Virus record (IMG/VR): IMGVR_UViG_3300006143_000348
Reading direction: 5' to 3' (one strand)
DNA: 64,000 bases
Origin: a virus
Lineage: Duplodnaviria; Heunggongvirae; Uroviricota; Caudoviricetes
A program made the position numbers and the translations under genes. Shown here piece after piece: positions 9,431 to 63,779 of the stretch. Each line of letters begins with the position of its first letter. The stretch's first letter is position 1. The notes beneath the pieces are model-generated. The model was not told the DNA's origin, ran no database searches, and worked only from the letters and a program-made list of their open reading frames with translations.

Positions 9431-9936
9431 GTGGAAGCCCTTAAACCGACTCGATAGCGGTTTTAAAAGATACTATCGCTCTGAGTAATCAGTGCACGAG
9501 CGGTTATCCGCCTGTGAGAGTACATCTGCTACCAGATGCGTCGCTGGGTGCGTAGGAAGTAAGCCTATGGTTCGGATAGTGAAAACCCCCAGAGTTACAC
9601 CCAATTAGATGTGAAAAGAGGTCGCATCTGCCTGAATGCGTCACCATGAGGGACTTCACCTTGAAAATCTTCGAGGGCGTCCAACGCAACGATATCAGTG
9701 CCCGAGGGCACATCGGCTATGTTCCGAGGAATTAAATGCCGGATTGTTTCTGGACGTCTGAAAAGACAGAGTAAAGGGAAGACAATAGAATATTGAGACA
9801 GCCGCCCTCCGGGGCGGTTGATGAGCATATATAGAGCATCCGAGACTTTAGTTATGAATCTGGCTACGCGGCATCGTTTCGGGTGTTCTGTTATGGGCTT
9901 ATCCATAAAAATAAATAGCCGAAAGGAGAAAACGAT

Positions 9937-14712: not shown

Positions 14713-15009
14713 TTGAATAAGGAAGATATGGTTCGTAAGGTTTCTAAGGACACCAAGTACAGCCCTGATGTAGTGAGGGAAATCACGGAGTCGCTGCTGG
14801 GAAACGTCGTGTCGGCCACGGCGGGTGGTGAAAAGGTATCCATTTCCGGGTTCGGGACATTTGAGCCAGTGGAAAAGAAAGCGAGAACAGGAAGGAACAT
14901 ATGTGCAGGAAGGCCGGTGCATATCCCGGCACATGTTGCCCCGGTTTTCAGGCCGGCAAAAGCATTTAAAGAAGCTGTATACAGAGAGGTGAAGCCATGC
15001 AGAACATAG
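14713..15009 (+). CDS. hup: HU/IHF-family DNA-binding protein
   Basis: 'VSISGFGTFEPVEKKARTGRNICAGRPVHIPAHVAPVFRPAKAFKEAV' matches the HU beta-arm region (GFGxFE...ARxGRNP...IP...P.FKPGKALK). A TTG start at 14713 is proposed, because GGAGGG at 14699-14704 lies 8 nt upstream. The track start ATG 14707 abuts the SD sequence. Confidence 0.8.
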   Translation: MNKEDMVRKVSKDTKYSPDVVREITESLLGNVVSATAGGEKVSISGFGTFEPVEKKARTGRNICAGRPVHIPAHVAPVFRPAKAFKEAVYREVKPCRT

Positions 15010-15569
15010 CAATACAGCCACATGAATTATGGGATTATTACAAAGAGAAAAAAGACGACCTTAGAACGTCGATGCACAGGGTCGCGAGCAATTCTGACTA
15101 CGGTGTGGAAATCTATATAACGGTAGGGGACGAGTGGCCGGAGATAGTGGTGTATGTCGACGGCGAAGAGGAATTCAGTGAAATCCTCGTGGGAAGTTCC
15201 TATTGTTGGAAAACAGCAGAGGAGATTTACGAAAAGTTCCTGACATCCAAAGCAATGGACATCTTTGGTGATGATGAGTCCCAGGAAGAGGATGAACTCA
15301 TCGCAATCGAGGAGAGGGAGCAGGAACTGGATGATGCGGTTCGCCAGTTTTACCTGGCGGTCATTGGGGGCGAGCCGTATTACGATGGCGATGACATGGA
15401 GGAGATGCTTGAGGACTTGAAAGAGCGTTTCCTGGAATATATGGCACGGGAATGGGAAGTTCCGATATTCCGTCCAATGAGGATGGAAGATGTAGAAACC
15501 GGTGAGGAATTCTACGAAGAATACCCATACGAGTGCATGGAATTCGAGGATGGAAAAGCCCATGTATAA
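14997..15569 (+). CDS. Acidic hypothetical protein (190 aa)
   Basis: Clean ORF, D/E-rich. Its last roughly 55 nt are duplicated at 16914-16966. Confidence 0.7.
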   Translation: MQNIAIQPHELWDYYKEKKDDLRTSMHRVASNSDYGVEIYITVGDEWPEIVVYVDGEEEFSEILVGSSYCWKTAEEIYEKFLTSKAMDIFGDDESQEEDELIAIEEREQELDDAVRQFYLAVIGGEPYYDGDDMEEMLEDLKERFLEYMAREWEVPIFRPMRMEDVETGEEFYEEYPYECMEFEDGKAHV

Positions 15570-15709: not shown

Positions 15710-16102
15710 ATGGCAAAAATCACAATCGCAGGACAGGCAGTAGTAGTAACCAGCACACTGAAACTGGAGGATATCAAGATGGTTAAGAAGTACCGTCCGG
15801 ATGCACTCACCCTGAGAGGCGGGGAAGATGGGAAGGAGCCTATCTTTGCCCTGGGAGTAGGGGAAGGCGGAATCAATAAGTTCGGTGCTTCCTTCCAGAT
15901 GGAAACACGGGATGAGGAGAAGCTGGCGGTTCTGACGATGACTACAGGGTATGACGGCGACGATATCGAGGAGTTCGTAGCAGACGAGCTTGGTGCGGCA
16001 ATCGTCAACTTAGGCAAGCTGGAAGAGAAACTTCCGGGGGTTATTGATGAGATTAAGGCTGAGAGACAGGCAATCATGTCCAACATCACTGTTGCGCAGT
16101 AG
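15710..16102 (+). CDS. Hypothetical protein (130 aa)
   Basis: AAAAGGAGAA RBS. A hairpin terminator GGCTGCCG-tgaaaatg-CGGCAGCC follows at 16112-16137. Confidence 0.75.
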   Translation: MAKITIAGQAVVVTSTLKLEDIKMVKKYRPDALTLRGGEDGKEPIFALGVGEGGINKFGASFQMETRDEEKLAVLTMTTGYDGDDIEEFVADELGAAIVNLGKLEEKLPGVIDEIKAERQAIMSNITVAQ

Positions 16103-16202: not shown

Positions 16203-16424
16203 ATGATTCAGGTTACAGTAGGAAATAACGTAAAGAGAGAAAAAATGATTGTGGATGCTAACAGGACTCTGCGCAGCGTGCTGGAAGAGGCAGGGATTGA
16301 CTATACAAGGGGTGTGATGCACCTGGATGGCGCTTCGGTGAATCCGGGTGACCTCGATAAGACCTTTGCAAGCTTCGGGATTGCTGAAAAATGTTTCCTG
16401 TTAAGCGTAGTTAAAGCGGATTGA
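16203..16424 (+). CDS. Small beta-grasp (ThiS/MoaD/ubiquitin-like) protein, 73 aa, no terminal GG
   Basis: The pattern 'MIQVTV...VDANRTLRSVLEEAGID...VMHLDGASVNPGDLDKT...FLLSVVK' parallels ThiS 'V.LNG..V......L.DGD.I.I...V.GG'. It ends ...VVKAD rather than GG. AAAAGGAGA RBS. Confidence 0.55.
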   Translation: MIQVTVGNNVKREKMIVDANRTLRSVLEEAGIDYTRGVMHLDGASVNPGDLDKTFASFGIAEKCFLLSVVKAD

Positions 16425-16861
16425 CTAGCAGGCAATGCTAAATAGTCCCATGTGAGAGTAATTTCACATGCAAATCTATCGAATTGCTGGGAACCCCTAA
16501 AGCTCGCAATACCACAACGTAAGAATGAAAGAAATCTAAGCGTGACGGTAACGAAAGTAGAAAGAAATTGCGAGATGGCGCAAGGTTAAATCCTAAACGC
16601 TTTTGCAATGGGCAATCAGCAGCGAAGCTCCGAACAGGAGAACGTTCAACGACTATCCCGTAAGGGAGTAGGGCGCAAGCGGTCGGTGTCCGAAGTGGTA
16701 GACACCCTGAGAAAAAGGGCGATGATATAGTCTGTACTGTAGGGAAACTTACAGAAATCTCTTTGGAGGCAGCATGGAACAGCGAGCCATGCTGAACATA
16801 ATAGAATGCATAGGAGCTTGTAGCACAGTGGCAAGCGGGTTAGGCAACTAGCCCGCTTGTT

Positions 16862-16900
16862 CTTTTAGGTGGGTGAAACTTGGCAGCACCCCGTTTTTTT
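16862..16900 (+). terminator. Rho-independent terminator (GGGTG...CACCC + T10) closing a roughly 430-nt ORF-free structured region (16430-16900)
   Basis: Stem GGTGGGTG/CACCCC followed by TTTTTTTTTT. Upstream is an 8-bp hairpin CAAGCGGG/CCCGCTTG. The region has no ORF longer than 62 aa and is GC-balanced with many hairpins. Confidence 0.6.
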
Positions 16901-17001
16901 TTTCATCCAGTACGGTGAGGAATTCTACAAAGAATACCCATACGAGTGCATGGAATTTGGAGATGGCTGGGATAGGAGCCGGAGGAAAGTGAACAGGGTG
17001 C

Positions 17002-17026
17002 ATGGGTTCAATTCCCATATTCACCA
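17002..17026 (+). other. tRNA 3'-end-like fragment (T-arm ATGGG-TTCAATT-CCCAT + 7-nt acceptor-like strand); candidate att-core remnant
   Basis: GGGTTCAATTCCC is a canonical T-loop. No matching 5' half could be found, so this is not a tRNA gene. Confidence 0.35.
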
Positions 17027-17054
17027 TTAAATAATTTTAGAAGGAGGAATTCAA

Positions 17055-18569
17055 ATGTTTAGACAGGTTGTAAGAGGAACAGCATTAACGACAGCAGAGG
17101 CGGACGCATATTTCGGGCGTATTCACGGAGAGTCTTTTTCAGATGACGTCACATTTCTGTCCACATTAAGGGCGTTGGTTGCACCAAGGATGCAGGAGGG
17201 AGAAAAAGTTTGTGTGAGGTTTATAAATTCGAGCTATGAGGAACGCTCCGTCCAGGGTGCAGGTTCTGATGCAGTGGTCAGGGCTGTTTATAATGCGCAG
17301 TATTTTAATGACGGCTCTGTTACAATCCATGATTTCCGAGGGAGAAAAGAAGATGTCCGTGCGAATTTCGAGGTAATTGAGTCATCTTTTTGCGACGTAT
17401 ACCAGGGATGGCAACGTCTTGAAAAAGTAACGGATTTTTTCCGAAGGACATTTTACTGTGTGTGTTTTGTGAACCCGGAGAGAAGGAGGGTTGTGATTTT
17501 CACAGACCCTCTGAACATGCAGAAAATGCACTACCTGCAGTGTGCAATCTTTGCTTTCATGCCGTGGTATTTCAACCCGGAAGATGGCGTGAAAACGGAG
17601 GAAATGGAACTCATCCAGTCGCTTAGGGGAAAAGACGTTGATGAATATCTGAAATGCATAGCAAAAATTGCATCACAGTATGATTTCAGGAGCGATTACA
17701 TCCGTAAAGCATTGGCAGGTTTTGAAGCCAACTTTGAGAAAAGAGAGCGAGAAGAAGAGAAAGATAAGATTAGAGATTTAATGCTTGACATTGAGCGTTT
17801 CCAGAATAAGTTGGCAGATACTTTGCGAATTAAGCGCAACCATGAAATTAAATTGCTTGGATTGGAAACGAAAATCGCACAGAGCACAGAGGGCGATTCT
17901 GAAATTATGGAATATTTCTTGTGCAACCGGAACCTTTCTTTAAGGGATGTAACGGAGAATATATTGTGCTTTGTTGCGAAAGGGTATGTAACTTACTATG
18001 ACGAGGACATGGCGAAGGCGATGGTTGATAATGAGAACAGCTACGTATATCGGCTTCGTGGATACGATTGCAACAGCCGCATTGAGAAACAGGATATGAA
18101 ACGGCTGATGTATGCGATTTTTATCGACCAGACTCTGAAGCTCAAGTTTTGCGCTGCGTATAAATTTGAGTTCGGGGTGAGGGTGTATGCAATTAGCGGA
18201 TATGAATATAACGAAGAATTTTCTGACTGTATGCCAAACCCCCACATTGACGAGTATAGCTGTATGGGAGATTACGAACGGACAATGAACGAATGCATCG
18301 GGAGTAGTGATTACATTGGCGCTTTAGAGCAGGGCGTTGCTTCCTGCAAGAGCCTGAACTTTGGCGACAGCACAGTTATGCAGGAATTCATGAAACGCAT
18401 GTACGGGTTCGGAGACCGCCCATATCATTGTATTGAACTTCCGGACGGACAGATTGTAACACCTGAAGAGGCCATTCGGTGGATGAAAAAGGAAGATAGA
18501 ATCCAGGAAGAGGATGCAAAAGCAGGGGTAGATGAAACGCAGAAAAGAGGAGGTAGCGGCGATGAGTAA
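17055..18569 (+). CDS. Hypothetical protein (504 aa), translationally coupled to the downstream JAB protease
   Basis: AGGAGGAAT RBS. Its 3' end overlaps the JAB gene start by 8 nt. It contains a 'MPNPHIDEYSC' segment faintly reminiscent of the E2 HPN-Cys region, which is weak evidence. Confidence 0.8.
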   Translation: MFRQVVRGTALTTAEADAYFGRIHGESFSDDVTFLSTLRALVAPRMQEGEKVCVRFINSSYEERSVQGAGSDAVVRAVYNAQYFNDGSVTIHDFRGRKEDVRANFEVIESSFCDVYQGWQRLEKVTDFFRRTFYCVCFVNPERRRVVIFTDPLNMQKMHYLQCAIFAFMPWYFNPEDGVKTEEMELIQSLRGKDVDEYLKCIAKIASQYDFRSDYIRKALAGFEANFEKREREEEKDKIRDLMLDIERFQNKLADTLRIKRNHEIKLLGLETKIAQSTEGDSEIMEYFLCNRNLSLRDVTENILCFVAKGYVTYYDEDMAKAMVDNENSYVYRLRGYDCNSRIEKQDMKRLMYAIFIDQTLKLKFCAAYKFEFGVRVYAISGYEYNEEFSDCMPNPHIDEYSCMGDYERTMNECIGSSDYIGALEQGVASCKSLNFGDSTVMQEFMKRMYGFGDRPYHCIELPDGQIVTPEEAIRWMKKEDRIQEEDAKAGVDETQKRGGSGDE

Positions 18570-19491
18570 GATGGTAAAAATAACCCAGGAGTGCTTAGAA
18601 CAGTGCCAGAAAGAGTTTATGGAAGCGCTGTCCGGGGGCAAGTTCCCGGACGGGAAGGTAACATTTACGAAAACCCTGGGGACGCTGAATAGGAAAGCAC
18701 GGGTACTTTTTAAGGAATTGGCGTGGCTGAAAATGCAGACGCTGATTCGCGAGTTCGATAAGGAAGTGGCATGGCATGGCATAGCTTGCCGGGGAGACGA
18801 ACCGGACACCTATTATATCACAGATATCCTGGTGTATCCGCAGGAAGTTACGGGCGCGACGGTCACAACAGACCAGGAAAAATACCAGATGTGGCTTATG
18901 GGGCACGACGACGACATCTTCAACAACATCAGGATGCAGGGGCATTCCCATGTGAATATGGGTGTTTCGCCTTCGTCTGTGGATACTTCCCTGTATGACC
19001 GTCTGCTTGAACAGCTTGATGACGACATGTTCTATATCTTCATGATTTGGAACAAGAGGAAAGACAGGATGGTTAAGATTTATGACCTGAAAACCAATGT
19101 GCTTTTTGAGACGGAGGACGTAAGCATCGAAGTAGTAGCTGACGAAGACGGGATTGAAAAGTTCCTTAAAAATGCGCGGGAGATGGTGGTAAACAGGCCT
19201 GTGGTCAGCTATGGGCATGGATACCCTGCGAACTTATCGAGATACGATACGCGGTATGGCTTACATTCCGGGGCGTTCGCAGGTTCTCCAAAAAACGGGG
19301 GCAGCACGCCGGGAAAAACGCAAGCCCTTACGGAGTCCAAAGATAAAAAGAAAAAAGGGAGACGTAAGGGCAGGCGTAAAGATGGGTACGGGAAGAATAG
19401 CAACGTAGGCAAGGCAGGCATCTGTACGGACGATGTGGATGTGCTGGACGAGCAGCTCTATGAAAGCCTGTACATGCGTGACTATCATTAA
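18562..19491 (+). CDS. JAB/MPN (JAMM) metalloprotease-domain protein
   Basis: 'GHSHVNMGVSPSSVD' fits the JAMM signature HxH-x7-S-x2-D, with an upstream Glu. The start at ATG 18562 has GAGGAGG 7 nt upstream. The track ORF starts at 18532. Lys/Arg-rich C-terminal tail. Confidence 0.8.
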   Translation: MSKMVKITQECLEQCQKEFMEALSGGKFPDGKVTFTKTLGTLNRKARVLFKELAWLKMQTLIREFDKEVAWHGIACRGDEPDTYYITDILVYPQEVTGATVTTDQEKYQMWLMGHDDDIFNNIRMQGHSHVNMGVSPSSVDTSLYDRLLEQLDDDMFYIFMIWNKRKDRMVKIYDLKTNVLFETEDVSIEVVADEDGIEKFLKNAREMVVNRPVVSYGHGYPANLSRYDTRYGLHSGAFAGSPKNGGSTPGKTQALTESKDKKKKGRRKGRRKDGYGKNSNVGKAGICTDDVDVLDEQLYESLYMRDYH

Positions 19492-19507
19492 AATATAAGG
19501 GTGGGTG

Positions 19508-20017
19508 ATGTATATGACGAGAGAAGCATTTCTTGAAGTGGTTAATACATGGTCGGAATTGATAAGCCTGTGCGAAGAATATGACTGTGATGAGTGCGCC
19601 CGTGTCCGTGATACAGAGATGTACGATGATTATATGAACAGTGAGCTGTTCAATAGAGTAAGAGACGAGATTGACTGGGAAGATATAAAATCATGGCTTG
19701 AGGACGCTCCACAGGGATACGATTATTACGATTACGATGAAGTATATGACCGGTTTAGTGGCTTAGACGAGGAGGATTTTAGGAGGTATAAAGGATATGT
19801 GCTTAGCTGGATGGAAAATGAGGGGGTGTTTGAAGAAGAGGAGGATGAATATGACGAGGAAACCGATGATGAAGCCGATGAGGATACGTCCCTCCAAGAA
19901 TATGAACCAGATTATGAGTGTGAGCCGCCAGAAGAGCCGGTTTCCATTGGGGAATTGTTCAGGTTGTGCAACGCTGAGATGGCGGAGGCAGGCATGAGAG
20001 CCGTGAAAACCAATTAG
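19508..20017 (+). CDS. Highly acidic hypothetical protein (about 169 aa; possible DNA-mimic/anti-restriction-type)
   Basis: Runs such as 'EEEEDEYDEETDDEADED'. D/E residues are abundant by eye. The start is ambiguous among GTG 19505, ATG 19508 and ATG 19514. Confidence 0.65.
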   Translation: MYMTREAFLEVVNTWSELISLCEEYDCDECARVRDTEMYDDYMNSELFNRVRDEIDWEDIKSWLEDAPQGYDYYDYDEVYDRFSGLDEEDFRRYKGYVLSWMENEGVFEEEEDEYDEETDDEADEDTSLQEYEPDYECEPPEEPVSIGELFRLCNAEMAEAGMRAVKTN

Positions 20018-20035
20018 GTGTGTAAGCGGAAAGCT

Positions 20036-20098
20036 GAGGGTCAAATTTGACCCTCAGGCCTAAGAAACGTTTGTGATTGCTGGTAGGGGTCACTAAAA
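20036..20098. terminator. Two strong hairpins: CTGAGGGTCAAA/TTTGACCCTCAG (12-bp palindrome) and GGGGTCAC-N8-GTGACCCC. Likely a bidirectional terminator or binding sites.
   Basis: Seen in the sequence between the acidic protein gene and the Uma2 gene. Confidence 0.45.
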
Positions 20099-20176
20099 TG
20101 GTGACCCCCTGGCGGAAAATGATTCTTCCTAAATTCAGCGAAATATGATATAGTGGCAAATAAGGAGGTGCTTAGT

Positions 20177-20731
20177 ATGGGATTAGCTGAATTTGAACGA
20201 AGAAAAGATGAAAAAATTGACGGAGTGATATATGATATGTCACCATCTCCAGGATATCGGCATTGCATTATCAATGGTAATATTTATACTATAATTAGGC
20301 AAGGATTAAAAAGCAGCATATGCCTTGTGTCTATGGAAAACTTGGATTTTAAATACCATCCTGATATAAATGATGATTACTTATGTCCAGATATCATGGT
20401 TATGTGCGACCGGAAACATTTAAAGGGCGGAGCCTACAGTGGCGTCCCCAAGTTCATCGCTGAAACATTAAGCCATTCGACAGCGAAGAGAGACAGGACG
20501 GAAAAGAAAGATATCTATGAAAAGGCGGGCGTGGAAGAATACTGGATTGTTTCGCCGCAGGGGTCTTTAGAAATCTATTTCTTGCAGGATGGGAAATATA
20601 TACTGGAACAGAACTATATGCTCCAAAACGACAAGGAAGACGATGAGTATAATGCAGAGATAGAAATATGTCTCAGGGAATTCCCACATATCAAGATGAC
20701 ATTAGGAGAAATTTTTGAGGGAATCGAATAA
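20177..20731 (+). CDS. Uma2-family (DUF820) PD-(D/E)xK endonuclease
   Basis: 'MSPSPGYRHCII', 'PDIMVM', 'FIAETLSHSTAKRDRTEKKDIYEKAGVEEYWIVSP' match the Uma2 family signature. The start at ATG 20177 has AAGGAGG 7 nt upstream. The track start 20153 contains the SD sequence. Confidence 0.85.
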   Translation: MGLAEFERRKDEKIDGVIYDMSPSPGYRHCIINGNIYTIIRQGLKSSICLVSMENLDFKYHPDINDDYLCPDIMVMCDRKHLKGGAYSGVPKFIAETLSHSTAKRDRTEKKDIYEKAGVEEYWIVSPQGSLEIYFLQDGKYILEQNYMLQNDKEDDEYNAEIEICLREFPHIKMTLGEIFEGIE

Positions 20732-20794
20732 AATACAATTCCTGAATTAGTAAGAAGGTATTGCTTAATCATCTATTTTGATGGTTTTGCAATG

Positions 20795-20945
20795 CCTTTT
20801 TTATGAATGAAGGATTGAGGTTGTCATCAGCCTAAAAAGATATATCTACCGTTGGAACGACGGAAAGTTACGCCTGTGGAGATGGAGGTTACGAAGTCGA
20901 TGAAGCAGGAATCTCACGACTTCATTCGTGAGAGGTTCAATTTGC
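20795..20945 (+). repeat. About 150-bp conserved non-coding element (copy 1 of 3; others at 38238-38390 and, partially, 38850-38920)
   Basis: About 90% identical to 38238-38385. Contains GGTTACGAAGTCGATGAAGCAGGAA followed by a hairpin (CTCACGA-cttcat-TCGTGAG). In the third copy the hairpin sequence differs but base-pairing is kept (CCCACCGAGC-ttta-GCTCGTGGG). Confidence 0.6.
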
Positions 20946-21047
20946 GGAAAATTTGATTCAGGGTAAGAAACTGGCAGGTCATGCAGACATGGTGCCCAGA
21001 CTGGGGAATTAACGAAAAATGAAAATAATACAAGGGGAAAGGTAGAT

Positions 21048-21770
21048 TTGGAAGAGATTAATATTTTTAGTAATGAGGAGTTTGGTGAAATTAGGACGGT
21101 AATTATTGATGGAGAGCCGTGGCTTGTAGGAAAGGATGTAGCGTTGGCGTTGGGATATTCTGAGCCGAGAAGTGCTGTTTCAAAAAGAGTAGATAAAGAA
21201 GATAGAGGTGTTGCCAAAACGGCAACACCATCGGGGATACAGGAAATGACCATCATTAATGAATCTGGTTTGTACGCCCTTATCTTTGGAAGCAGGCTTG
21301 AATCCGCGAAGCGTTTCAAGCACTGGGTGACATCCGAAGTTCTCCCTGCAATCCGCAAAACAGGCAGGTATATTGCACCATCTGAGGGCACGATGGAATC
21401 TATGTTCGAAGCCATGAGCTGTGATATGAAAATGGTTTATGAGCAGATGAACAAATTTGATGAGCGGATGGAAAGCGTAGAATCCATGATGCAGGAACAG
21501 TCAGGGAAATTAAACCAGGTAGTAGACAATATGACTCTGACAACCAGACAGCAACAGCGGATTTATAAAGCAGCGAAAGATAGAATCAACCATCTGCTCG
21601 GCGGCGCACATTCTGAGGAATATAAAAGCCGTTCTAAAAGCTACTTCATTAACTTATGGAACGGTCTAAAAGCAGAGTTCGAGTGCGGCGGGTCGTATAA
21701 GGACTTGAATCATGTCTATTTCGATGCTGCGCTGGGGTATATTGGGTCGTGGCGGTATGTAGAAACATAG
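21048..21770 (+). CDS. Bro-N + ORF6C antirepressor paralog
   Basis: 'MEEINIFSNEEFGEIRTVIIDGEPWLVGKDVALALGY' is Bro-N. The C-terminal ORF6C region is near-identical to 10914..11678. Confidence 0.85.
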   Translation: MEEINIFSNEEFGEIRTVIIDGEPWLVGKDVALALGYSEPRSAVSKRVDKEDRGVAKTATPSGIQEMTIINESGLYALIFGSRLESAKRFKHWVTSEVLPAIRKTGRYIAPSEGTMESMFEAMSCDMKMVYEQMNKFDERMESVESMMQEQSGKLNQVVDNMTLTTRQQQRIYKAAKDRINHLLGGAHSEEYKSRSKSYFINLWNGLKAEFECGGSYKDLNHVYFDAALGYIGSWRYVET

Positions 21771-21835
21771 TCGGGAATTTAAGAACATTTGTACGATATT
21801 GGTATTGACATAGCACGGGGGTTGTGGTAGGATAG

Positions 21836-22102
21836 TGCAAACGGATGTTTGAAATGGTTTTTTGAAAAAAAGTACAGCCGAGCTGCAACTCGACTGTACG
21901 GGTATTACTAATTAGTCGGCAATCACTCCGACTCACACTAAGAAAAAATGAGGTTGCATGAACAACAACCACAACTTTATTCAATGAACAAGCACAAACA
22001 AACTTGTTCGTATCTAGTATGCCACGAAATGCACAGAAAGTCAACAGGGAAATTCTGAAAATATCAAGTTGATTTTAAAAGCTCACCGCAAGGTGGGCTT
22101 TT
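21836..22102 (+). ncRNA. Candidate structured RNA / long leader (copy B), downstream of the promoter at 21805-21833 (TTGACA-N17-TAGGAT), with terminator GCTCACC-GCAA-GGTGGGC + T4 at 22081-22102
   Basis: Same hairpin set as copy A, with loop and sequence differences that preserve the stems. Confidence 0.35.
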
Positions 22103-22143
22103 GATATATATGTACAGAATAAAAGGAAATTGTAGAATCGAAC

Positions 22144-22179
22144 TGTCGCAAATTTGCGACATATTTCAAGATAAAAAAA
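22144..22179. promoter_or_regulatory. 16-bp perfect palindrome GTCGCAAATTTGCGAC followed by the 'TTCAAGATAAAAAAA' motif (candidate operator/promoter element of the antirepressor genes)
   Basis: Related palindromes sit at 23060-23082 (GGGGGTCGCAAATCGCGACCCCC) and 12871-12890. The TCAAGATAAAAA motif recurs at 12120, 12729, 12896, 22165, 23084 and 46033. Confidence 0.4.
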
Positions 22180-22318
22180 TTTGGGATGTGAGAATTTTCG
22201 CGAGTTAAACCAAGAGGGTGAAATCCGCCCGCTTGGTTTAGAAATGTCGTAGGGTAAAACATGGCAAAAGGGTATTTGGCTGGGAACTAACGAAAATAAT
22301 TTAGGAGGGAAAGTAGAT

Positions 22319-23023
22319 TTGGAAGGGATTGAGATTTTTAGCAACCAGGAATTTGGTGAAATTAGAACGGTGGTTATTGATGGTGAGCCGTGGTTTGTGG
22401 GGAAGGATGTAGCGTTGGCGTTGGGGTATGAGAAGCCGAGAAATGCCATAGCTACACATGTTGATGTAGAGGATAAAAAGGGAGCCCCGATTCAGGGCTC
22501 CCCTGGGGGAACACAGGAAATGATTGTCATTAACGAATCTGGAATGTACGCTCTGATTTTTGGAAGCAAACTTGAATCCGCGAAACGTTTCAAGCACTGG
22601 GTGACATCCGAAGTTCTCCCTGCAATCCGTAAAACAGGCAGGTATATTGCACCATCTGAGGGTACGATGGAATCTATGTTTGAAGCTATGAGCTGCGATA
22701 TGAAAATGGTTTATGAACAGATGGGCAATATAGAATCTATGATGCAAGAACAGTCAGGAAAATTGAACCAGGTAGTAGACAACATGACTCTGACAACCAG
22801 ACAGCAACAGCGGATTTATAAAGCAGCGAAAGACAGAATCAACCATCTGCTCGGCGGCGCACATTCTGAGGAATATAAGAGCTGTTCTAAAAGTTACTTC
22901 ATTAACTTATGGAATGGGTTAAAAGCAGAGTTTGACTGTGGCGGTTCGTATAAGGACTTAAACCCTGTCTATTTCGATGCCGCGCTGGGGTACATCGGGT
23001 CGTGGCGGTATGTGGAAACATAG
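22319..23023 (+). CDS. Bro-N + ORF6C antirepressor paralog
   Basis: Full-length counterpart of the truncated 12269..12721. AGGAGGG RBS. Confidence 0.85.
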   Translation: MEGIEIFSNQEFGEIRTVVIDGEPWFVGKDVALALGYEKPRNAIATHVDVEDKKGAPIQGSPGGTQEMIVINESGMYALIFGSKLESAKRFKHWVTSEVLPAIRKTGRYIAPSEGTMESMFEAMSCDMKMVYEQMGNIESMMQEQSGKLNQVVDNMTLTTRQQQRIYKAAKDRINHLLGGAHSEEYKSCSKSYFINLWNGLKAEFDCGGSYKDLNPVYFDAALGYIGSWRYVET

Positions 23024-23099
23024 TCGGGAAATAACTTAATTTCAGTCTGAGTAGCAAAGGGGGTCGCAAATCGCGACCCCCTTTCAAGATAAAAATAAA

Positions 23100-23819
23100 A
23101 TGAAAGAGGTATTCACAGTGGAAAATGTAGCATTAATTCAGGGGACGGAATTACAGATTAAAGAGTATCAGGGGAACAGGGTTGTGACGTTTAAGGATGT
23201 TGACAGAGTTCACCAGAGGCCGGATGGGACGGCAAGAAGGCGGTTCAACGATAATAGGAGGCGATTTCTTGAGGGGACTGATTACTTTAAAGTTTGTGCG
23301 TCCGAAATTCGGACGCACAACATTATGGACATATCAAGCAAAGCACATGAAGATATGACCCTCCTTACTGAAAGCGGCTATCTCATGTTAGTAAAGTCTT
23401 TTACTGACGACTTAGCTTGGAAAGTCCAGAGGGATTTGGTGAACACATACTTCAAGATGAAAGAAGTAGTAGAATCCGCCACCCCGGAGGAAACAGGAAT
23501 GGTTCTCACGCAAGAGGGTTTTGCAGATGCAGTCCATGCACTGACTGGGTGTGCAAGCATATTCCAGTCGATGCTCGACTACTCCACAATCAACTATAAG
23601 CAACAGCAGGAACTTTTACAGGCGGCAAGGCGGCGGGTAAGCCACCTTCTCGGCGGGGCACATTCGGACAGGTACAGGCAGTCGTCCAGGATATACTTCA
23701 GGAATCTCTGGCAGGATTTCTGCGAGTACTTCTCTTGCGGCTCCTACCGGGATTTAAACCCGCAGTATATGGTAGATGACGCTGCGGCAAGGTGGATTTC
23801 GGAGTGGTCATATGGCTGA
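23100..23819 (+). CDS. ORF6N(KilA-N-like)-ORF6C antirepressor-like protein (copy B of 12912..13628)
   Basis: Near-identical to copy A except for a divergent segment ('FKVCASEIRTHNIMDISSKAHEDMT' vs 'FKITPSEFRTAIGDMDLRQQNNVT'). Confidence 0.85.
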   Translation: MKEVFTVENVALIQGTELQIKEYQGNRVVTFKDVDRVHQRPDGTARRRFNDNRRRFLEGTDYFKVCASEIRTHNIMDISSKAHEDMTLLTESGYLMLVKSFTDDLAWKVQRDLVNTYFKMKEVVESATPEETGMVLTQEGFADAVHALTGCASIFQSMLDYSTINYKQQQELLQAARRRVSHLLGGAHSDRYRQSSRIYFRNLWQDFCEYFSCGSYRDLNPQYMVDDAAARWISEWSYG

Positions 23820-24093
23820 TAATGCAAGGGCTGGGTGCTTAGATATCCAGGGAGATAACAGGAGGGTTTTTGTGGGCAGAAGAGAATATGCAAAACGCAG
23901 CAAGCGGGGTAAACGCCTCAGGATGTTAAAGCAGCGGCTTGTGGCGATAGAAATATTGCTTATATGCGTGCTTATCACTGTGTGGGAGTTCGAGGGCAAC
24001 AACGGAATCCCCTGCGACATGTGCGGGACTATCCTCATCGCGGTGCTTGCTTTGTACTTGCTTTTTACGAAGGAGTGCTGGGTTTATGACTGA
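23812..24093 (+). CDS. Small membrane protein (copy B of 13621..13902)
   Basis: Same two hydrophobic helices. The start overlaps the upstream stop. GTG 23872 is an alternative start. Confidence 0.5.
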   Translation: MADNARAGCLDIQGDNRRVFVGRREYAKRSKRGKRLRMLKQRLVAIEILLICVLITVWEFEGNNGIPCDMCGTILIAVLALYLLFTKECWVYD

Positions 24094-24210
24094 GGGAAAT
24101 GACTGCTATAAGCGATGAGGGAGTCCATTCGGTGGACATCCCCTTTGGAGCACAGAAACGACAATTATGGACGAGCTACGGAAACATTATTGCTTAGAGA
24201 GGAGAAATTA

Positions 24211-24980
24211 GTGGAAGTAATTGAGATTTTTTTTAGCAATGAAAAATTCGGGGAAATCAGGGCGGTAATCACCGATGGCGAGCCGTGGTTTGTGGGGAAA
24301 GATGTGGCGACGGCGTTGGGATATAAAGACGCAAAAAAGCTTTAAAAGTTCATGTTGATGAAGAGGATAGACAGTTAATCCAAAGGGGGCAAACCGCCCC
24401 CTTAGAAATCCCGAATCGTGGAATGACCATCATTAACGAATCTGGCTTGTATGCCCTTATATTTGGAAGCAAACTTGAATCTGCTAGGCGTTTCAAACAC
24501 TGGGTAACATCCGAAGTTCTCCCTGCAATCCGCAAAACAGGCAGGTATATTGCACCATCTGAGGGGACGATGGAATCTATGTTTGAAGCTATGAGCTGTG
24601 ATATGAAAATGGTTTATGAACGAATGAGCAATATAGAAAGTAAAATTGATGAGCGGATGGAAAGCGTAGAATCCATGATGCAGGAACAGTCAGCTATGAT
24701 GCAGGAACAGTCAGGAAAATTGAACCAGGTAGTAGACAACATGACTCTGACAACCAGACAGCAACAGCGGATTTATAAAGCAGCGAAAGACAGAATCAAC
24801 CATCTGCTCGGCGGCGCACATTCTGAGGAATATAAGAGCTGTTCTAAAAGTTACTTCATTAACTTATGGAATGGGTTAAAAGCAGAGTTTGACTGTGGCG
24901 GTTCGTATAAGGACTTAAACCCTGTCTATTTCGATGCCGCGCTGGGGTACATCGGGTCGTGGCGATATGTAGAAACATAA
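24211..24980 (+). pseudogene. Bro-N + ORF6C antirepressor paralog disrupted by a frameshift (track ORFs 24115..24345 and 24423..24980)
   Basis: The N-terminal part (VEVIEIFFSNEKFGEIRAVITDGEPWFVGKDVATALGYKD) ends at 'AKKL*' inside an A-run. The +1 frame then continues KVHVDEEDRQLIQRGQTAPLEIPNRGMTIINESGLY.... Intact paralogs read straight through. Confidence 0.6.
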
Positions 24981-25062
24981 GAGGAAAATAGAGACAACGA
25001 ATTTCGTCCCATCAAACGTGTAAAATAATTCACTTAGGAATCATAAAGGAGGATGTAAAATT

Positions 25063-25734
25063 ATGGATTTAAGCAAATCATATGAGTTTTTCCAGCCAGA
25101 AAAGGACAATGCGAGGATACATATCGTGGGGTGTGGTTCGGTCGGTTCCACGATTGCTGAAAACCTGGCGCGCTGCGGTGTAACAAAGATGACACTGTGG
25201 GACTTCGATAAGGTGGAAAACCACAATATCGTGAACCAGATGTTTAACCAGAATGATGTAGGGAAGCTTAAAGTCGAGGCGCTGAAAGATATGCTGGTAG
25301 ACATCAATCCAGAAATAGCGGATGGCATTGATATGAAGCCGGAGGGATGGCAGGGGAAAATGATGTCCGGCTATATCTTCCTGTGTGTGGACAGCATCGA
25401 ACTGCGCAGGGAAATTGTTGAAAAGCATATGGACAGCCCATATGTGAAAGCGGTCTTTGACTTCAGGACGCTCTTGGAAAGCGCACAGCACTATGCCGCT
25501 GACTGGTCAGACTATAAGATGAAGAAAGACCTGCTGAACTCCATGCAGTTCTCCCATGATGAAGCGAAGGAGGAAACCCCGGTGTCTGCCTGCGGAGTGA
25601 CGCTTGGCGTGGCTACGACAGTCCGTCTGGTCTGTGCGCTTGGAGTAAACAACTACATCAATTTTGTCAAAGGCAACGGTATTAAGAAGCTGGTTTTAAT
25701 AGACGGATTTGGTTTTGATTTGATGGCGTTTTAG
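25063..25734 (+). CDS. E1-like / ThiF-MoeB-family adenylyltransferase (Rossmann nucleotide-binding domain only, 223 aa)
   Basis: 'IHIVGCGSVGSTIAENLARCGVTKMTLWDFDKVENHNIVNQ' matches the ThiF/E1 GxGxxG plus 'D.D.V..SNL.RQ' signature. AAAGGAGGA RBS. No CxxC Zn motif. Confidence 0.85.
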   Translation: MDLSKSYEFFQPEKDNARIHIVGCGSVGSTIAENLARCGVTKMTLWDFDKVENHNIVNQMFNQNDVGKLKVEALKDMLVDINPEIADGIDMKPEGWQGKMMSGYIFLCVDSIELRREIVEKHMDSPYVKAVFDFRTLLESAQHYAADWSDYKMKKDLLNSMQFSHDEAKEETPVSACGVTLGVATTVRLVCALGVNNYINFVKGNGIKKLVLIDGFGFDLMAF

Positions 25735-26080
25735 GGGATGGGCGCTTAAAGCGCCCTCACATAAGCATGTAATGAAATTTATCTCCAAGAGGTAGCTCCT
25801 TACTGTTAGTGGGAGTAACAATTTGATAGAAAGGCCAGGGAGGTATCCCACGGCTGCCAAAAGGGTTTTAAATCCTGGTACAAGATTGGCAGGTGGTTCA
25901 AAAAAAAATCCGACAGTAGCGAATGAGTAAGCAGCTTGATTGGTAAAAGTACTGTCCCACAGTCTTTCTTATCATCAAATCATTTCGGAGCCTCTACCCT
26001 CCCCAGGGTGACCGAAGGGTTCCAAAGACATCATCATAATACATGAGATTACATGCTTTTCATAGAAAGGAAGGTGCAGT
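25735..26080 (+). other. 346-nt ORF-free leader upstream of the reverse transcriptase; candidate ncRNA (retron msr/msd-like or DRT ncRNA)
   Basis: Contains hairpin CTCC-ttACTGTTAGTG-GGAG with the 'GTAACAATTTGATAGAAAGG' motif. There is an imperfect long-range inverted repeat, ACTGT..TGGGA (about 25800) against TCCCA.CAGT (about 25950). Related motif copies sit at 27300-27330 and 28245-28262. Confidence 0.35.
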
Positions 26081-27220
26081 ATGTTCTATATTACAGTTAA
26101 GCAGTCGCCAATGTATCATCAAATGACATTGGAAGAGTTTCTGTTTAATACAGAAGTTAAAAGTACATGTATTAATCCAAATATGACCAATACACGTACA
26201 TACGAAATAGCGGAAATCAGTGAAAGGTTTTTAGGGACGGTAGATGTAAGGAAATTGATAGCAAAGCTTGTCCAGTTCAATGATTCCGTCGCAGAATTAA
26301 AGAGCGCTCCAAGACATGAGCTTTACCATACGTTCCATATCCCGAAGAAGAGCGGAGGGTTAAGGAAGATTGACGCCCCGAATGCAGAATTAATGGATGC
26401 GCTGAGACGGCTGAAAACCATTTTCGAGGAAGATTTCAAAGCCTTGTACCATACGTCCGCATTCGCATATGTGAAACACCGCAGCACCTTAGATGCTGTG
26501 AAGAGACACCAGGCGAATGCAAGCAGGTGGTTTGGGAAATACGACCTTTCCAATTTCTTCGGGAGCACGACTCTGGAATATGTAATGCATATGCTCGGGA
26601 TGGTTTTCCCATTTTCGGAGGTACTGAAGCAGGGGATTGGGAGAAGCGCATTAAGCGATGCACTGGAGCTTGCATTCCTTGATGGGGCTTTGCCGCAGGG
26701 GACGCCATTATCCCCGCTGCTTACTAACATCATAATGATTCCGGTGGATTTCAAGCTGGCAAACACATTAAGGGAATATAATCATCAGCGGTTTGTTTAT
26801 ACAAGGTACGCTGATGATTTTTTAGTTTCATCCAGATACCAGTTCAGCTTCCGGGAGATTGAGGCACTGATAATATCGACGCTCGCTGATTTTGGCGCGC
26901 CGTTTACCATTAATCCAGGGAAGACCCGGTATGGGTCATCCGCGGGTTCAAACTGGAACCTTGGAGTGATGCTGAACAAAGACAATCAGATTACCGTGGG
27001 ATACAAAAAGAAACGGCAGTTCCAGGCGATGCTGGCATCGTATGTCATGGACAGGAGGAATGGGACGCCCTGGGATAAGACGGACATCCGGGTAATGGAA
27101 GGATACAGGAACTACTATAGGATGATTGAGAAAGAAACCATTGACGCTATGGTAAAACATGTTGGCGATAAATTTGGCGTTGATATCGTGGCGTTAATTA
27201 AGACAGATTTGAAAATCTGA
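26081..27220 (+). CDS. Reverse transcriptase (retron/Abi/DRT-type, 379 aa)
   Basis: RT motifs: 'IPKKSGGLRKI' (motifs 1/2), 'FGKYDLSNFFGS' (A), 'LPQGTPLSPLLTNI' (B), 'YTRYADDFLV' (C, YADD). No maturase or endonuclease domain. AAAGGAAGG RBS. Confidence 0.9.
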   Translation: MFYITVKQSPMYHQMTLEEFLFNTEVKSTCINPNMTNTRTYEIAEISERFLGTVDVRKLIAKLVQFNDSVAELKSAPRHELYHTFHIPKKSGGLRKIDAPNAELMDALRRLKTIFEEDFKALYHTSAFAYVKHRSTLDAVKRHQANASRWFGKYDLSNFFGSTTLEYVMHMLGMVFPFSEVLKQGIGRSALSDALELAFLDGALPQGTPLSPLLTNIIMIPVDFKLANTLREYNHQRFVYTRYADDFLVSSRYQFSFREIEALIISTLADFGAPFTINPGKTRYGSSAGSNWNLGVMLNKDNQITVGYKKKRQFQAMLASYVMDRRNGTPWDKTDIRVMEGYRNYYRMIEKETIDAMVKHVGDKFGVDIVALIKTDLKI

Positions 27221-27565
27221 GTTCGCGATATATAAGAACTTTAAAGAATCGAAGAGTCTTCCGCTGCAATGATATTATATCTGTTTTTGGATATGCTCCT
27301 AGCTGTCAGCGGGATGTAACAATTTGATGAAAAGGGAAATAAGCAGCCTAGGGAACCGAGTCCGGTGTAAGGTCATGGCAACAGATGCCGAAATCCACGG
27401 AAATTTGATTAAAACGCAGTATATTAGACTGAAAGGTACTGTATTACAAAGGTTGCAGAAGATAGTAATCAGCAGAAACGTCAGCTAAGTCAGGCTGCTC
27501 GCCTCCAGATTGGCCTTTTACTAAAGTAGTATTCCCCACTAGATTGCTTGGAGGACTCTGAAAAA

Positions 27566-28129
27566 ATGAAAAGGGAGGAAATTAGAATGAGTTTTACGAT
27601 GAACATATCTGATATTAAAATTCCCGAAGGCTTTGCAAAAAGCGTTCCGGGAAAAGCAAAAATGGATAGGTGCAGGAGATATTACAGCAAGAATGGGTGC
27701 CTTGACAGGGATATTGTGGTTGACAAAAACGGTTACTTGCAAGATGGCTATATCGGCTATCTTGTTTTAGTAGAAAACGGAGCAACGCACACAGAGGTTA
27801 TCCAGAAAGGGTATGACAGGGAATATAGAAACAGCTTTGCCCCACAGGTTGGTGACTGGGTAAAAATCCGCGACTGGGAGGATATGGAAGAGGAGTTTGG
27901 GGTATCTGAGAACGGATGGATTGAGTGCCGTTTCCGTTTTACTAAAGAAATGCAGAGCGGTATAGGAGGTCTTGAATTTGAAATTACGGAAATTAAGTAT
28001 GACGAGTATCTCGGACATGATTCCGAGTGGAAGATATCAAAAGATATGCTGATGCCAGCAGGTGATATGTATGTTGATTCGGACGAGGTTGATAAATTTT
28101 TGGAATCAATTAAAGTCGTAGACCAATAG
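27566..28129 (+). CDS. Hypothetical protein (about 187 aa) between the RT and the AAA+ ATPase
   Basis: Clean ORF. Alternative starts are ATG 27548 (track) and ATG 27587 (GGGAGG 8 nt upstream). A 327-nt leader precedes it. Confidence 0.7.
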   Translation: MKREEIRMSFTMNISDIKIPEGFAKSVPGKAKMDRCRRYYSKNGCLDRDIVVDKNGYLQDGYIGYLVLVENGATHTEVIQKGYDREYRNSFAPQVGDWVKIRDWEDMEEEFGVSENGWIECRFRFTKEMQSGIGGLEFEITEIKYDEYLGHDSEWKISKDMLMPAGDMYVDSDEVDKFLESIKVVDQ

Positions 28130-28393: not shown

Positions 28394-29503
28394 ATGAAAG
28401 CAATTAGCCAGGGAAACAATACGTATGACATTTTTGATGATTCACTGCAGGTATATGAACAGCTGCCTGCACAGTTCTATGTAGTGAGGTTCAGCGAAAA
28501 CAGGGGATTTTCCCTTGTGAAGAGTCCAGAAATGGAAATTAAAGAGCCGAAAGTGTATGGCGTACATGACGAAAAGGTACAGAAAGTTATGAAAGCATTT
28601 ACTACAATGAACCGTAGCCTGGGAGTGATTTTGAGCGGTGATAAAGGTATCGGCAAGTCGCTGCTTGCAAAGATGCTTGCGGTAACTTCTATTAAAGGCG
28701 GTATGCCAGTTATCATAGTGGACACATATTATCCAGGAATTGCCTCTTATATCGAAGATATCGAACAGGAGGTAATGATTTTGTTTGACGAATTTGATAA
28801 GACCTTCGGCACTGTAAGAGCAAAGGATGGGGACGCATCCCCACAAACACAGATGCTGTCCTTGTTTGACGGGATTTCTGTTGGGAAGAAGCTGTTTGTA
28901 GTTACATGCAATGAGCTTGCGAACTTGAGTGATTACTTGGTAAACAGGCCGGGGCGGTTCCATTACCATTTCCGGTTTGAGTATCCATCGGTGCAGGAAG
29001 TCAGACAGTACCTGAGAGATAAACTGCCGGAGAAATACCACGGGGAGATTGAAGACGTGGTTTCTTTTTCCGGAAAGGTAAACCTGAACTACGACTGCCT
29101 GCGCGCAATTGCATTTGAGTTGCAGATGGGTTCTGCATTTGGCGAGGCGATTAAAGACTTAAATATCATCAATATTGAGAAGGTGTACTATATAGTCACT
29201 TTGAAATACGCGAATGGATTCACAGCGGTGAATAGGAGAGTACAGCTGGATATGTTCGGAGGGGAGGAAAGGGAGACCGTATACTTATACGATAATAACG
29301 AGGGCAATTTCGTTGATGTCGAGTTTACACCGACGGACGCGGTGTTTGACACTTCCATGTGTGCCCATGTAATAACGCCTGACAAGTTCAGCCTCGACTA
29401 TATAGAGTCGTATGTAGAGTCTTGCAAAGCAGCAAAAGCAAGTGAGCCGGAGTGCTTGGTTATTACCCGAAAGATGGACAAAAATATCCACTACTTGGCA
29501 TAG
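28394..29503 (+). CDS. AAA+ ATPase
   Basis: Walker A 'GDKGIGKS', Walker B 'ILFDEFDK', sensor-2/Arg region 'NRPGRFHYH'. CAAGGAGAAG RBS. Confidence 0.85.
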   Translation: MKAISQGNNTYDIFDDSLQVYEQLPAQFYVVRFSENRGFSLVKSPEMEIKEPKVYGVHDEKVQKVMKAFTTMNRSLGVILSGDKGIGKSLLAKMLAVTSIKGGMPVIIVDTYYPGIASYIEDIEQEVMILFDEFDKTFGTVRAKDGDASPQTQMLSLFDGISVGKKLFVVTCNELANLSDYLVNRPGRFHYHFRFEYPSVQEVRQYLRDKLPEKYHGEIEDVVSFSGKVNLNYDCLRAIAFELQMGSAFGEAIKDLNIINIEKVYYIVTLKYANGFTAVNRRVQLDMFGGEERETVYLYDNNEGNFVDVEFTPTDAVFDTSMCAHVITPDKFSLDYIESYVESCKAAKASEPECLVITRKMDKNIHYLA

Positions 29504-63742: not shown

Positions 63743-63779
63743 ATTAGTAAAGTGTTGTTTTTTTATAATGGGGAATGAG

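Follow-up and report, generated by a model that had tools for sequence, protein, structure and literature searches.

A candidate Bil-like ubiquitin-like conjugation cassette in the core gene set of gut Clostridia phages

We analyzed a 64,000-nucleotide (nt) stretch of the IMG/VR virus record IMGVR_UViG_3300006143_000348 (Caudoviricetes), referred to here as the window, and focused on a group of its genes that resemble components of ubiquitin-like protein (Ubl) conjugation systems. On balance, this region probably encodes a self-contained Ubl conjugation pathway that belongs to the core of the phage genome, resembles the bacterial BilABCD system, and uses a tag with a C-terminal alanine. The cassette consists of a conserved 130-amino-acid (aa) protein (p130), a Ubl, a 504-aa E2-like protein, a JAB/MPN+ (JAMM) metalloprotease (JAB), and a minimal E1-like enzyme (Table 1). 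We built this reading on gene content and synteny, the family of the E1, the fold and catalytic residues of JAB, a group I intron and the C-terminus restored by its removal, precursor-type Ubl genes, and invariant cysteines. A first-pass annotation of the same DNA had named open reading frames (ORFs) at 16203-16424, 17055-18569, 18532-19491, 25063-25734, and 39465-40631 (a NifS-like gene), all of which are present. It did not mention the intron, the true C-terminus of the Ubl, the conserved p130, or an adjacent retron-type reverse transcriptase (RT).

Gene order across related phages and the insertion in the window

We assembled about 90 related loci (numbered L001 onward) from IMG/VR, GTDB metagenome-assembled genomes (Eubacteriales, Ruminococcus, Oscillospiraceae, Acutalibacteraceae, and Roseburia bins), and public assemblies, and scored them with hidden Markov models (HMMs) made from the window's own protein families. 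Synteny counts refer to the 67 non-redundant loci with enough flanking sequence. The relatives include IMG/VR viral contigs of 54-133 kb, and the family that carries the cassette comprises large temperate phages of gut Clostridia encoding a YonO-type RNA polymerase. Near-identity DNA searches of GenBank phages and PLSDB plasmids returned only matches to the intron core, or nothing.

The genes for p130, the Ubl, the ~500-aa protein, JAB, and the E1 lie on one strand in this fixed order in 66 of the 67 loci. The order is kept down to 25% identity of the ~500-aa (E2-like) protein to that of the window, and the cassette is complete, though unannotated, in MT835544 (23% identical), the only matching GenBank phage record. 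A scan anchored on p130 recovered the full cassette at 47 of 50 loci, the three exceptions being contig ends. JAB directly adjoins the E1 in 48 of 79 loci; elsewhere, an acidic gene of ~170 codons lies between them. The acidic 170-aa protein is probably not a core part of the cassette, because its place varies between lineages. Compared with the window's proteins, the median identity reaches 77% for the Ubl, 70% for the E1, 64% for both p130 and the RT, and 42-43% for the E2-like protein and JAB, making the Ubl the most conserved protein of the module. These families are large (more than 839 homologs of the 504-aa protein, 2389 of the JAB-motif protein, and 536 of the small Ubl protein, the last at 77-100% identity); the homologs are nearly all gut-metagenomic, and none has a precomputed Pfam domain. 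Literature searches found no publication describing this phage Ubl module.

The first-pass annotation had described the genes as dispersed, split by antirepressor duplications, and had offered their function as one system as a conjecture. The split is real in the window, where a block containing a Uma2-family nuclease and antirepressor genes precedes the E1. This block is not at this position in L001 or L006-L087 and was found only in the window's own clone; the number of antirepressor copies varies between near-identical contigs, with two in L003. Because the gene order is contiguous in the relatives and the block is clone-specific, the dispersed layout reflects a recent insertion into an operon-like module. 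The Uma2/antirepressor insertion is not part of the Ubl system. The four genes that it separates make up a single system, as their contiguity in the 66 loci and in the distant MT835544 bears out. The four antirepressor paralogs (Bro-N/ORF6N plus ORF6C, 21048-24980) have nearly identical C-terminal halves, and one copy is broken into two ORFs (24115-24345 and 24423-24980).

Table 1. Features of the cassette and other annotated elements of the 64,000-nt window
Feature	Coordinates	Strand	Remarks
p130, conserved 130-aa protein	15710-16102	+	Immediately 5' of the Ubl gene in 66/67 loci; median identity 64%
Ubl exon 1	16203-16421	+	Codons 1-73, ending ...VVKAD; 73-aa ORF 16203-16424
Group I intron, predicted self-splicing	16422-16804	+	383 nt, no ORF; RF00028, 82.5 bits vs gathering 50
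Ubl exon 2	16805-16813	+	AAT GCA TAG = Asn74-Ala75-stop; spliced translation 75 aa, ...KADNA
Terminator-like hairpin	16830-16861	+	14-bp stem plus T-run, just 3' of the Ubl stop
Degenerate tRNA-like remnant	16868-17027	+	Acceptor GGTGGGT/ATTCACC, T-arm; read from sequence; between Ubl and E2-like genes
E2-like protein, 504 aa	17055-18569	+	N-terminal alpha/beta domain, coiled-coil helix 223-276, putative UBC/RWD-like C-terminal domain
JAB/MPN+ (JAMM) metalloprotease	18562-19491	+	Catalytic domain ~13-220 of 319-aa ORF (18532-19491)
Acidic 170-aa protein	19505-20017	+	Between JAB and E1 in some lineages, elsewhere in others
Lineage-specific insertion	20153-24980	+	Uma2-family nuclease and four Bro-N/ORF6C antirepressor paralogs; Pfam matches
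Minimal E1-like adenylating enzyme, 223 aa	25063-25734	+	Single ThiF/MoeB-type Rossmann domain; PF00899
Retron-type unit	25763-27220	+	~296-nt non-coding region plus RT gene (26081-27220); adjoins E1
YonO-type single-subunit RNA polymerase	1895-4639	-	PF05183 RdRP, E = 1.5e-16; phrog_25339
NifS-like class-V aminotransferase	39465-40631		E = 1.5e-78

The enzymes, the tag, and its precursor forms

The identification of the 223-aa protein as E1-like stands. It belongs to the superfamily of PF00899 (E = 1.1e-22; 80.8 bits against a cut-off of 28.1), and its sequence matches in the PDB are UBA5, MccB, MoeB, UBA1, and Cap2. The GxGxxG motif (G23/G25/G28), R37, D47, N58-Q59, K70, D110, and R115, as well as Cys177 in the crossover loop, show at least 97% conservation among 79 homologs; the protein has no CxxC zinc motifs.

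This family assignment bears on a different function, in which the E1 adenylates the small protein as a sulfur carrier, NifS makes a thiocarboxylate for cofactor, nucleoside, or DNA modification, and JAB only trims. The ThiF and MoeB models are the best NCBIfam matches of the E1, JAB-E1-ThiS/MoaD-like operons of sulfur metabolism are known, and a NifS-like gene is present in the window. The small size of the E1 and its conserved Cys177 also recall ThiF with its Cys184. Nevertheless, the E1 scores far under the ThiF/MoeB equivalog cut-offs (PRK08644, 82.2 vs 159; TIGR02354, 69.4 vs 152; TIGR02355, 49 vs 377), and its NCBIfam matches (ThiF, MoeB, Cap2, and PRTRC_ThiF), every one of them well short of its cut-off, span mostly the first ~70 residues of the Rossmann domain. 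The tag has a conserved Asn-Ala rather than Gly-Gly terminus in ~80 loci, no thiamine, molybdenum cofactor, rhodanese, or sulfurtransferase genes occur within ±8-10 kb of the cassette in the relatives examined, and the E2/RWD-like protein, with its invariant Cys and its translational coupling to JAB, would have no role in such a pathway. The NifS gene lies 13.7 kb from the cassette, and its neighbors are an RnlB-antitoxin-like gene, a tyrosine integrase, and an AAA_14/DUF4143 ATPase (39465-42258). No homolog of it occurs within ±8-10 kb of the cassette in loci L001-L087, and IMG/VR contains no close relative. We rejected NifS as a component, given its distance and the lack of homologs in related flanks; it is more likely cargo than a functional associate of the Ubl genes. 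We therefore consider a sulfur carrier highly improbable, and neither the sulfur-transfer option nor the NifS link raised in the first-pass annotation held up. That annotation would have abandoned its reading had the Ubl and E1 classified as MoaD/MoeB paralogs tied to cofactor genes; they are not MoaD/MoeB or ThiS/ThiF orthologs, and no such genes accompany them in the flanks examined.

JAB is a JAMM/MPN+ metalloprotease by its predicted fold and its zinc-site residues. The motif HSH-x7-S-x2-D corresponds to H138, H140, S148, and D151, and each of these, like E78, is retained by at least 97% of 81 homologs. In the AlphaFold2 (AF2) model, the core has a predicted local distance difference test score (pLDDT) of ~80-90, and the C-terminal tail is disordered, Lys/Arg-rich and then acidic. 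A Foldseek search of the PDB with this model returned Rpn11, CSN5, a Caldiarchaeum Rpn11 homolog, PfJAMM1, and BubCD with probability 1.0 and E = 1e-7 to 1e-5. The conserved residues and the match of the model to Rpn11, CSN5, and archaeal JAMM1 argue that the motif, which had been recognized from the start, is not a chance match. At the level of sequence profiles, a marginal PADLOC JAB model (E = 0.012) was the sole match; no Pfam JAB model matched, including in a scan of 60 members, and a PDB profile search was negative. The conserved start of JAB is ATG 18562, with a GAGGAGG Shine-Dalgarno sequence 8 nt 5', giving a product of 309 aa rather than the longer ORF listed initially. The translational coupling to the 504-aa gene that had been proposed nonetheless holds: the start of JAB and the stop of the 504-aa gene overlap by 8 nt (ATGAGTAA), and an overlap of identical length is found in L006-L008.

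The 504-aa protein had been suggested to be either E2-like or a substrate-recognition protein. Its AF2 model (mean pLDDT 86) consists of two alpha/beta domains, one at each end of the chain, together with a long helix (223-276), and the motif P394-N395-x-H397-x-D399-x3-C403-x-G405 is invariant in 83 homologs. The spacing from Asn to Cys in this motif equals that in the HPN...Cys signature of E2 enzymes. Foldseek against the PDB, Pfam (60 members), and a PDB sequence-profile search gave nothing for this protein, and hhalign of the C-terminal domain against three human E2s gave no signal in a comparison of little power that used single-sequence templates. We regard the 504-aa protein, with its putative UBC/RWD-like C-terminal domain, as probably E2-like, in which case Cys403 would be its catalytic residue, although the database and alignment searches returned no match.

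We next consider the tag. The first-pass annotation described a 73-aa beta-grasp protein without a terminal Gly-Gly. The lack of Gly-Gly is correct; the 73-aa ORF, however, is exon 1 only, and the Asn-Ala that ends the 75-aa product is supplied by exon 2. The Asp73 codon ends at U16421, immediately 5' of the splice site, with P1 formed by exon GGAU and intron GUCC, a U16421·G16445 wobble at the splice site, and G16804 as the terminal (omega) G of the intron. Predicted splicing restores the reading frame, and the product ends ...KADNA, as in intron-less homologs. At nearly all intron-less loci, the Ubl ends ...VVKADNA plus zero to three variable residues, and ...KAD* endings are confined to intron-bearing loci. 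In L009, an independent lineage in which the Ubl is 86% identical, a 307-nt intron has the same gcggat/tgact junction and a downstream GUCC guide, and exon 2 reads AAC GCG AGA TAA, yielding ...KADNAR. A third lineage, L096, has the same 5' junction and GUCC guide before its contig runs out. A comparable motif turns up in 5.6% of shuffles of the region; because two lineages show the match, both times preceded by a G and closely following the ribozyme core on its 3' side, chance is an unlikely explanation. As far as can be read from the sequence, then, unspliced mRNA encodes a tag without its presumptive reactive end.

In the 5' part of the intron, beyond the TGA of the 73-aa ORF and in frame with exon 1, positions 16434-16445 read AAT GCT AAA TAG (Asn-Ala-Lys-stop), mimicking the coding sequence of exon 2. 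This mimic is not in the L009 or L096 introns and could be a remnant of the 3' end that preceded insertion or a chance match. A 12-nt stop-bearing insertion as the cause of the KAD* end in the window was ruled out, since L009 and L096 have the same intron junction without the Asn-Ala-Lys sequence. We also rejected an insertion into tRNA-Leu(UAA), which is the classic location for such introns, because the sequences on either side do not form the two halves of a tRNA and it is the Ubl ORF that is interrupted. Within the degenerate tRNA-like remnant farther downstream, the 3' end of the acidic 190-aa gene (14997-15569) is repeated, a duplication marked by an identical hairpin at 15524-15541 and 16937-16954. 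ARAGORN found no tRNA in the window, and Rfam calls none at 16868-17027; at the equivalent position, relatives carry an intact tRNA-Leu(UAA) (L001) or an 82-nt tRNA (L007 and L008).

A beta-grasp fold of the tag is suggested by sub-threshold profile matches: 29 of 56 Ubl members match DUF2604 (PF10790; best E = 8e-4), five of 56 match TUG-UBL1, and one di-Ubl relative matches UAE_UbL (4.9e-4). The Ubl profile had no match in the PDB sequence set, and hhalign against Ub, NEDD8, ThiS, and MoaD gave no signal, again with single-sequence templates and little power. As single sequences, the Ubl, the 504-aa protein, and p130 were uninformative against Pfam, NCBIfam, PADLOC, and PHROGs. In keeping with Ubl modifiers, the tag has a conserved C-terminal tail, ...KADNA plus zero to three variable residues, at which precursors are joined; its terminal residue is Ala.

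An exhaustive HMM search with the Ubl profile yielded 655 cluster representatives, of which we read the architectures of the 150 listed. Among these 150, 35 are Ubl::p130 fusions of ~205 aa, in which the second part matches p130 over its full length and is joined directly to Ubl residues 1-75 (...KADNA). The fusion junction, ...KADNA/A-x-I-x-I-x-G, mirrors the p130 N-terminus, M-A-K-I-T-I-A-G. Three others (including P0365 and P0436) are head-to-tail tandem di-Ubls, with repeats that end ...DNA or ...DGA. Both variants occupy the same cassette and are followed by the E2-like, JAB, ThiF, and RT genes. The di-Ubl and Ubl::p130 genes need an endopeptidase that cuts after Ala75, a role that BilC fulfills for BilA and Cap3 for CD-NTases. 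The stand-alone p130 has no Pfam, PHROG, PADLOC, or PDB match. Its position and its fusions make it the prime candidate for a substrate or partner of the putative conjugation reaction.

The fusions could also be taken to mean that the beta-grasp protein is only a processing or chaperone tag, that is, a cleavable fusion partner or assembly chaperone for p130 that is released by JAB without any protein conjugation. The E1 would then perform MccB- or PaaA-like C-terminal chemistry, with the 504-aa protein serving as an RWD-type scaffold that lacks catalytic activity. We find this improbable. In most lineages, including the window, p130 and the Ubl are separate genes, p130 first, with no fusion, and tandem di-Ubl genes exist. 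Moreover, Cys403 with its PN motif and Cys177 of the E1 are invariant across the family, and the extreme conservation of the tag fits a modifier that docks on E1, E2, JAB, and targets.

Proposed pathway, genomic context, and alternative roles

Our preferred explanation is a Ubl conjugation pathway with the following steps. The group I intron would be removed from the Ubl mRNA, leaving a tag that ends ...Lys-Ala-Asp-Asn-Ala(75). Where the tag is made with extra C-terminal residues, or as a di-Ubl or Ubl::p130 form, JAB would cut after Ala75. The 223-aa E1, presumably acting as a homodimer-type enzyme, would adenylate Ala75, and the tag would then form a thioester on Cys177 of the E1 or pass directly as acyl-adenylate to Cys403. 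Cys403 lies in the UBC/RWD-like C-terminal domain of the 504-aa protein, whose N-terminal domain and coiled coil may bind substrate or E1, giving an E2 with a built-in adaptor. From there, the tag would be attached to target proteins at lysines or at the N-terminus, p130 being the prime candidate target, and JAB may also undo the conjugates.

Several observations weigh against this pathway. The E1 has no dedicated CYS or UFD domain, the Pfam matches of the Ubl are all under gathering thresholds, and the tag terminus conserved in the ~80 loci is Asn-Ala instead of Gly-Gly. On the last point, we note that an E1 can accept a C-terminal Ala, as Cap2 adenylates Enterobacter cloacae CdnD (...GRFA). 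Furthermore, all cassette loci belong to a single syntenic phage family, so that co-occurrence by itself does not tell a functional link apart from a gene order that was simply inherited.

The window covers the early/replication region of a large phage genome, as judged from the YonO-type polymerase, the replication genes, and the viral relatives. Integrases, ERF, DnaB, a primase, a DNA polymerase, NrdD, and PhoH are also encoded in it. A 1098-aa ORF (52777-56073) guessed to be the tape-measure protein turned out to be the DNA polymerase. The first-pass annotation had listed tail assembly among the possible roles; this option is unsupported because the cassette sits in the early/replication region.

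Conjugation by the same enzymes could instead serve prophage-encoded anti-phage defense or superinfection exclusion, as in BilABCD, with structural proteins of competitor phages as targets. The phages are temperate, with integrases, and some cassette loci lie on contigs of 206-359 kb. A retron-type RT with a putative non-coding RNA (ncRNA) is encoded next door, and defense or anti-defense genes occur nearby, such as Tad4 in L008 and the nSTAND3 ATPase described below. However, the cassette is syntenic in essentially the whole family (66/67), whereas true accessory genes (Uma2, antirepressors, IS110, and NifS) vary even between near-identical contigs. In addition, many lineages fuse a dedicated partner, p130, to the tag, and PADLOC gave no Bil-type or CapH/CapP match. 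Prophage defense is a serious rival, which we nonetheless regard as unlikely. We favor a phage-intrinsic function during infection over accessory defense, because every family member has the module in the same gene order while the accessory genes around it vary.

The retron-type unit adjoins the E1. A 20-nt a1/a2-like inverted repeat (25763-25782 and 26039-26058) encloses ~256 nt of non-coding sequence, for which Rfam gave no match. Seven relatives have the same 256-285-nt spacing with different arm sequences (eight lineages with the window), which on sequence comparison looks like compensatory change in an a1/a2 stem. The RT matches RVT_1 (2.4e-17) and PADLOC RT_II-A (2.7e-44), and reaches 167 bits against the retron St85 family, under the cut-off of 235. 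In 65 of the 67 loci, the RT follows the E1 directly or after one to three genes. This raises the idea that the Ubl cassette and the adjacent RT/ncRNA form one unit, with conjugation as the effector or regulator arm of a retron, or with the RT product regulating conjugation. The conserved position and the apparent covariation of the inverted repeat across lineages are consistent with it, and no other conserved candidate effector adjoins the RT, the genes downstream being variable. The adjacency may, on the other hand, just mirror the conserved synteny of the phage family; up to three unrelated genes separate E1 and RT in many loci, and L014, L078, and L084 have the E1 with no RT detected within the sequence available. 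We also know of no retron type that uses Ubl machinery, and we rate a single unit as very improbable. On the 3' side of the RT, an nSTAND3/AAA ATPase (28394-29503, + strand; phrog_2376, E = 5e-103) is preceded by a 193-aa protein with a weakly ParB-like N-terminus (27548-28129).

Other features of the window and its relatives are as follows. Adjoining the YonO-type polymerase is a 417-aa protein (4850-6103, - strand), the counterpart of which, at the same position in L007 and L008, has a YonV_C domain. The polymerase and this neighbor suggest an SPbeta-like transcription strategy in these gut Clostridia phages. A RAGATH-16 RNA motif at 9523-9594 (+ strand; 75.1 bits against a gathering threshold of 65.6) recurs at the equivalent position 5' of the early genes in L006 (433-505), L007 (3731-3801), and L008 (3672-3744), and L007 additionally has a RAGATH-36 match. 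A phage-borne tmRNA gene (RF00023, 88.7 bits) is found in L007 (20258-20560), a related 206-kb contig, together with several tRNAs. An IS110-family transposase (29610-31010, - strand; DEDD_Tnp_IS110 plus Transposase_20) is inserted on the opposite strand in the early region. The last 2 kb of the window (62001-64000) has a G+C content of 0.285, against ~0.45 elsewhere, and a 448-aa ORF at 62396-63742 has no PHROG match.

To our knowledge, all biochemically characterized bacterial ubiquitination-like pathways (CBASS Cap2/Cap3, Bil, and Bub) are host weapons against phages. The cassette may, as we tentatively suggest, be the first complete cascade of E1, E2, deubiquitinase (DUB), and Ubl to serve as a core, vertically inherited phage module and not as a defense island, used on p130, host proteins, or both. 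In this proposal, three of the four families are invisible to profile libraries, the modifier ends in Asn-Ala and comes in ubiquitin-gene-like forms, some lineages need splicing to make it conjugation-competent, and coupling to the RT/ncRNA is a further possibility. If true, bacterial viruses would use protein tagging as eukaryotic viruses do, and the cassette would offer a compact system amenable to genetics, in which a tag of 75 aa and an E1 of 223 aa are joined by an adaptor-containing E2, a JAB, and a candidate dedicated substrate. Such a system would allow the role of Ubl conjugation to be studied in cells where it does not direct proteins to a proteasome. The cassette also defines at least four large unannotated protein families: p130, the Ubl, the E2-like protein, and this clade of JAB proteases. 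Leaving p130 aside, gut metagenomes hold hundreds to thousands of members of these families taken together. Its di-Ubl and Ubl-fusion genes are an independent parallel to the organization of eukaryotic ubiquitin genes, and the intron before the last two codons offers a testable case of a reactive C-terminus that depends on RNA splicing.

Comparison with known systems

The cassette lacks at least one defining feature of each of the Bil, CBASS, Bub, PRTRC, and lambda TAPI/TAPK systems. For PRTRC, the E1 scores 28.6 bits against the PRTRC_ThiF model (TIGR03736), whose cut-off is 144.75; there were no further PRTRC matches, and only a weak ParB-like PHROG match on the protein at 27548-28129. The lambda/T1 tail proteins TAPI (a Ubl) and TAPK (JAB-NlpC/P60) offer a precedent for a phage-encoded Ubl/JAB pairing. 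In contrast to that tail module, the cassette is an early/replication-region locus flanked by an HU-like gene and the RT, includes an E1 and an E2-like protein, and has no NlpC/P60 domain.

The sulfur-carrier pairs ThiS-ThiF and MoaD-MoeB, CysO/Mec+, and QbsE/QbsD share with the cassette a small E1 with a crossover-loop Cys, a small carrier, and a JAB that trims the C-terminus. They differ in that the phage tag has no Gly-Gly, no biosynthetic or sulfur-relay genes are neighbors, an E2/RWD-like protein is present, and the E1 is under the family cut-offs.

Eukaryotic ubiquitin genes resemble the phage Ubl genes in organization: the modifier is encoded as a monomer, as a head-to-tail tandem, or as a fusion at the exact C-terminus, and is the most conserved component. 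There is no sequence relationship between eukaryotic ubiquitin and the phage Ubl, the phage terminus is Asn-Ala, and the processing enzyme would be the cassette's own JAMM protease.

Two antiphage systems share parts of the proposed chemistry. In Bub (6E/DUF6527), the Ubl is made as a fusion precursor that needs JAB-type cleavage (BubAB, BubCD), the E1 has no separate catalytic CYS domain, and BubCD is among the structural matches of the phage JAB. Bub, however, works via serine oxyesters and a DUF6527 serine protease, while the candidate residues in the phage proteins are cysteines (E1 C177 and E2-like C403), and we found no DUF6527 match for the phage module. Type II CBASS is similar in its ThiF-type homodimeric E1 chemistry and in a JAB that both trims and deconjugates. 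Its E1, Cap2, takes a C-terminal Ala, like that of the phage tag, and Cap2 models are the best PADLOC matches of the phage E1, spanning only ~70 Rossmann residues. The cassette has no E1-E2 fusion, no CD-NTase is among the neighbors scanned, and the moiety to be conjugated is a stand-alone beta-grasp-like protein.

By analogy, the module appears to work most like BilABCD: types I and II (Millman 2022; Chambers 2024; Hör 2024) have the order Ubl-E2-DUB-E1 as four separate proteins, so that the same four roles stand in the same gene order as here. No sequence similarity is detectable for the Ubl, E2, or JAB. BilD has tandem IAD, AAD, and CYS domains, whereas the phage E1 is a single 223-aa ThiF-type domain, and the universally conserved Gly at the processing site of the Bil Ubl is an Ala in the phage tag. 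Unlike in Bil, the E2-like domain is only one part of a 504-aa protein that also comprises a coiled coil and an additional domain at its N-terminus. Bil is found in bacterial defense islands with CapH/CapP, and the phage module in a core gene set with its partner p130. The cassette is thus distinguished from Bil by its sequence families, its minimal E1, its Asn-Ala C-terminus, and its place in the phage core genome.

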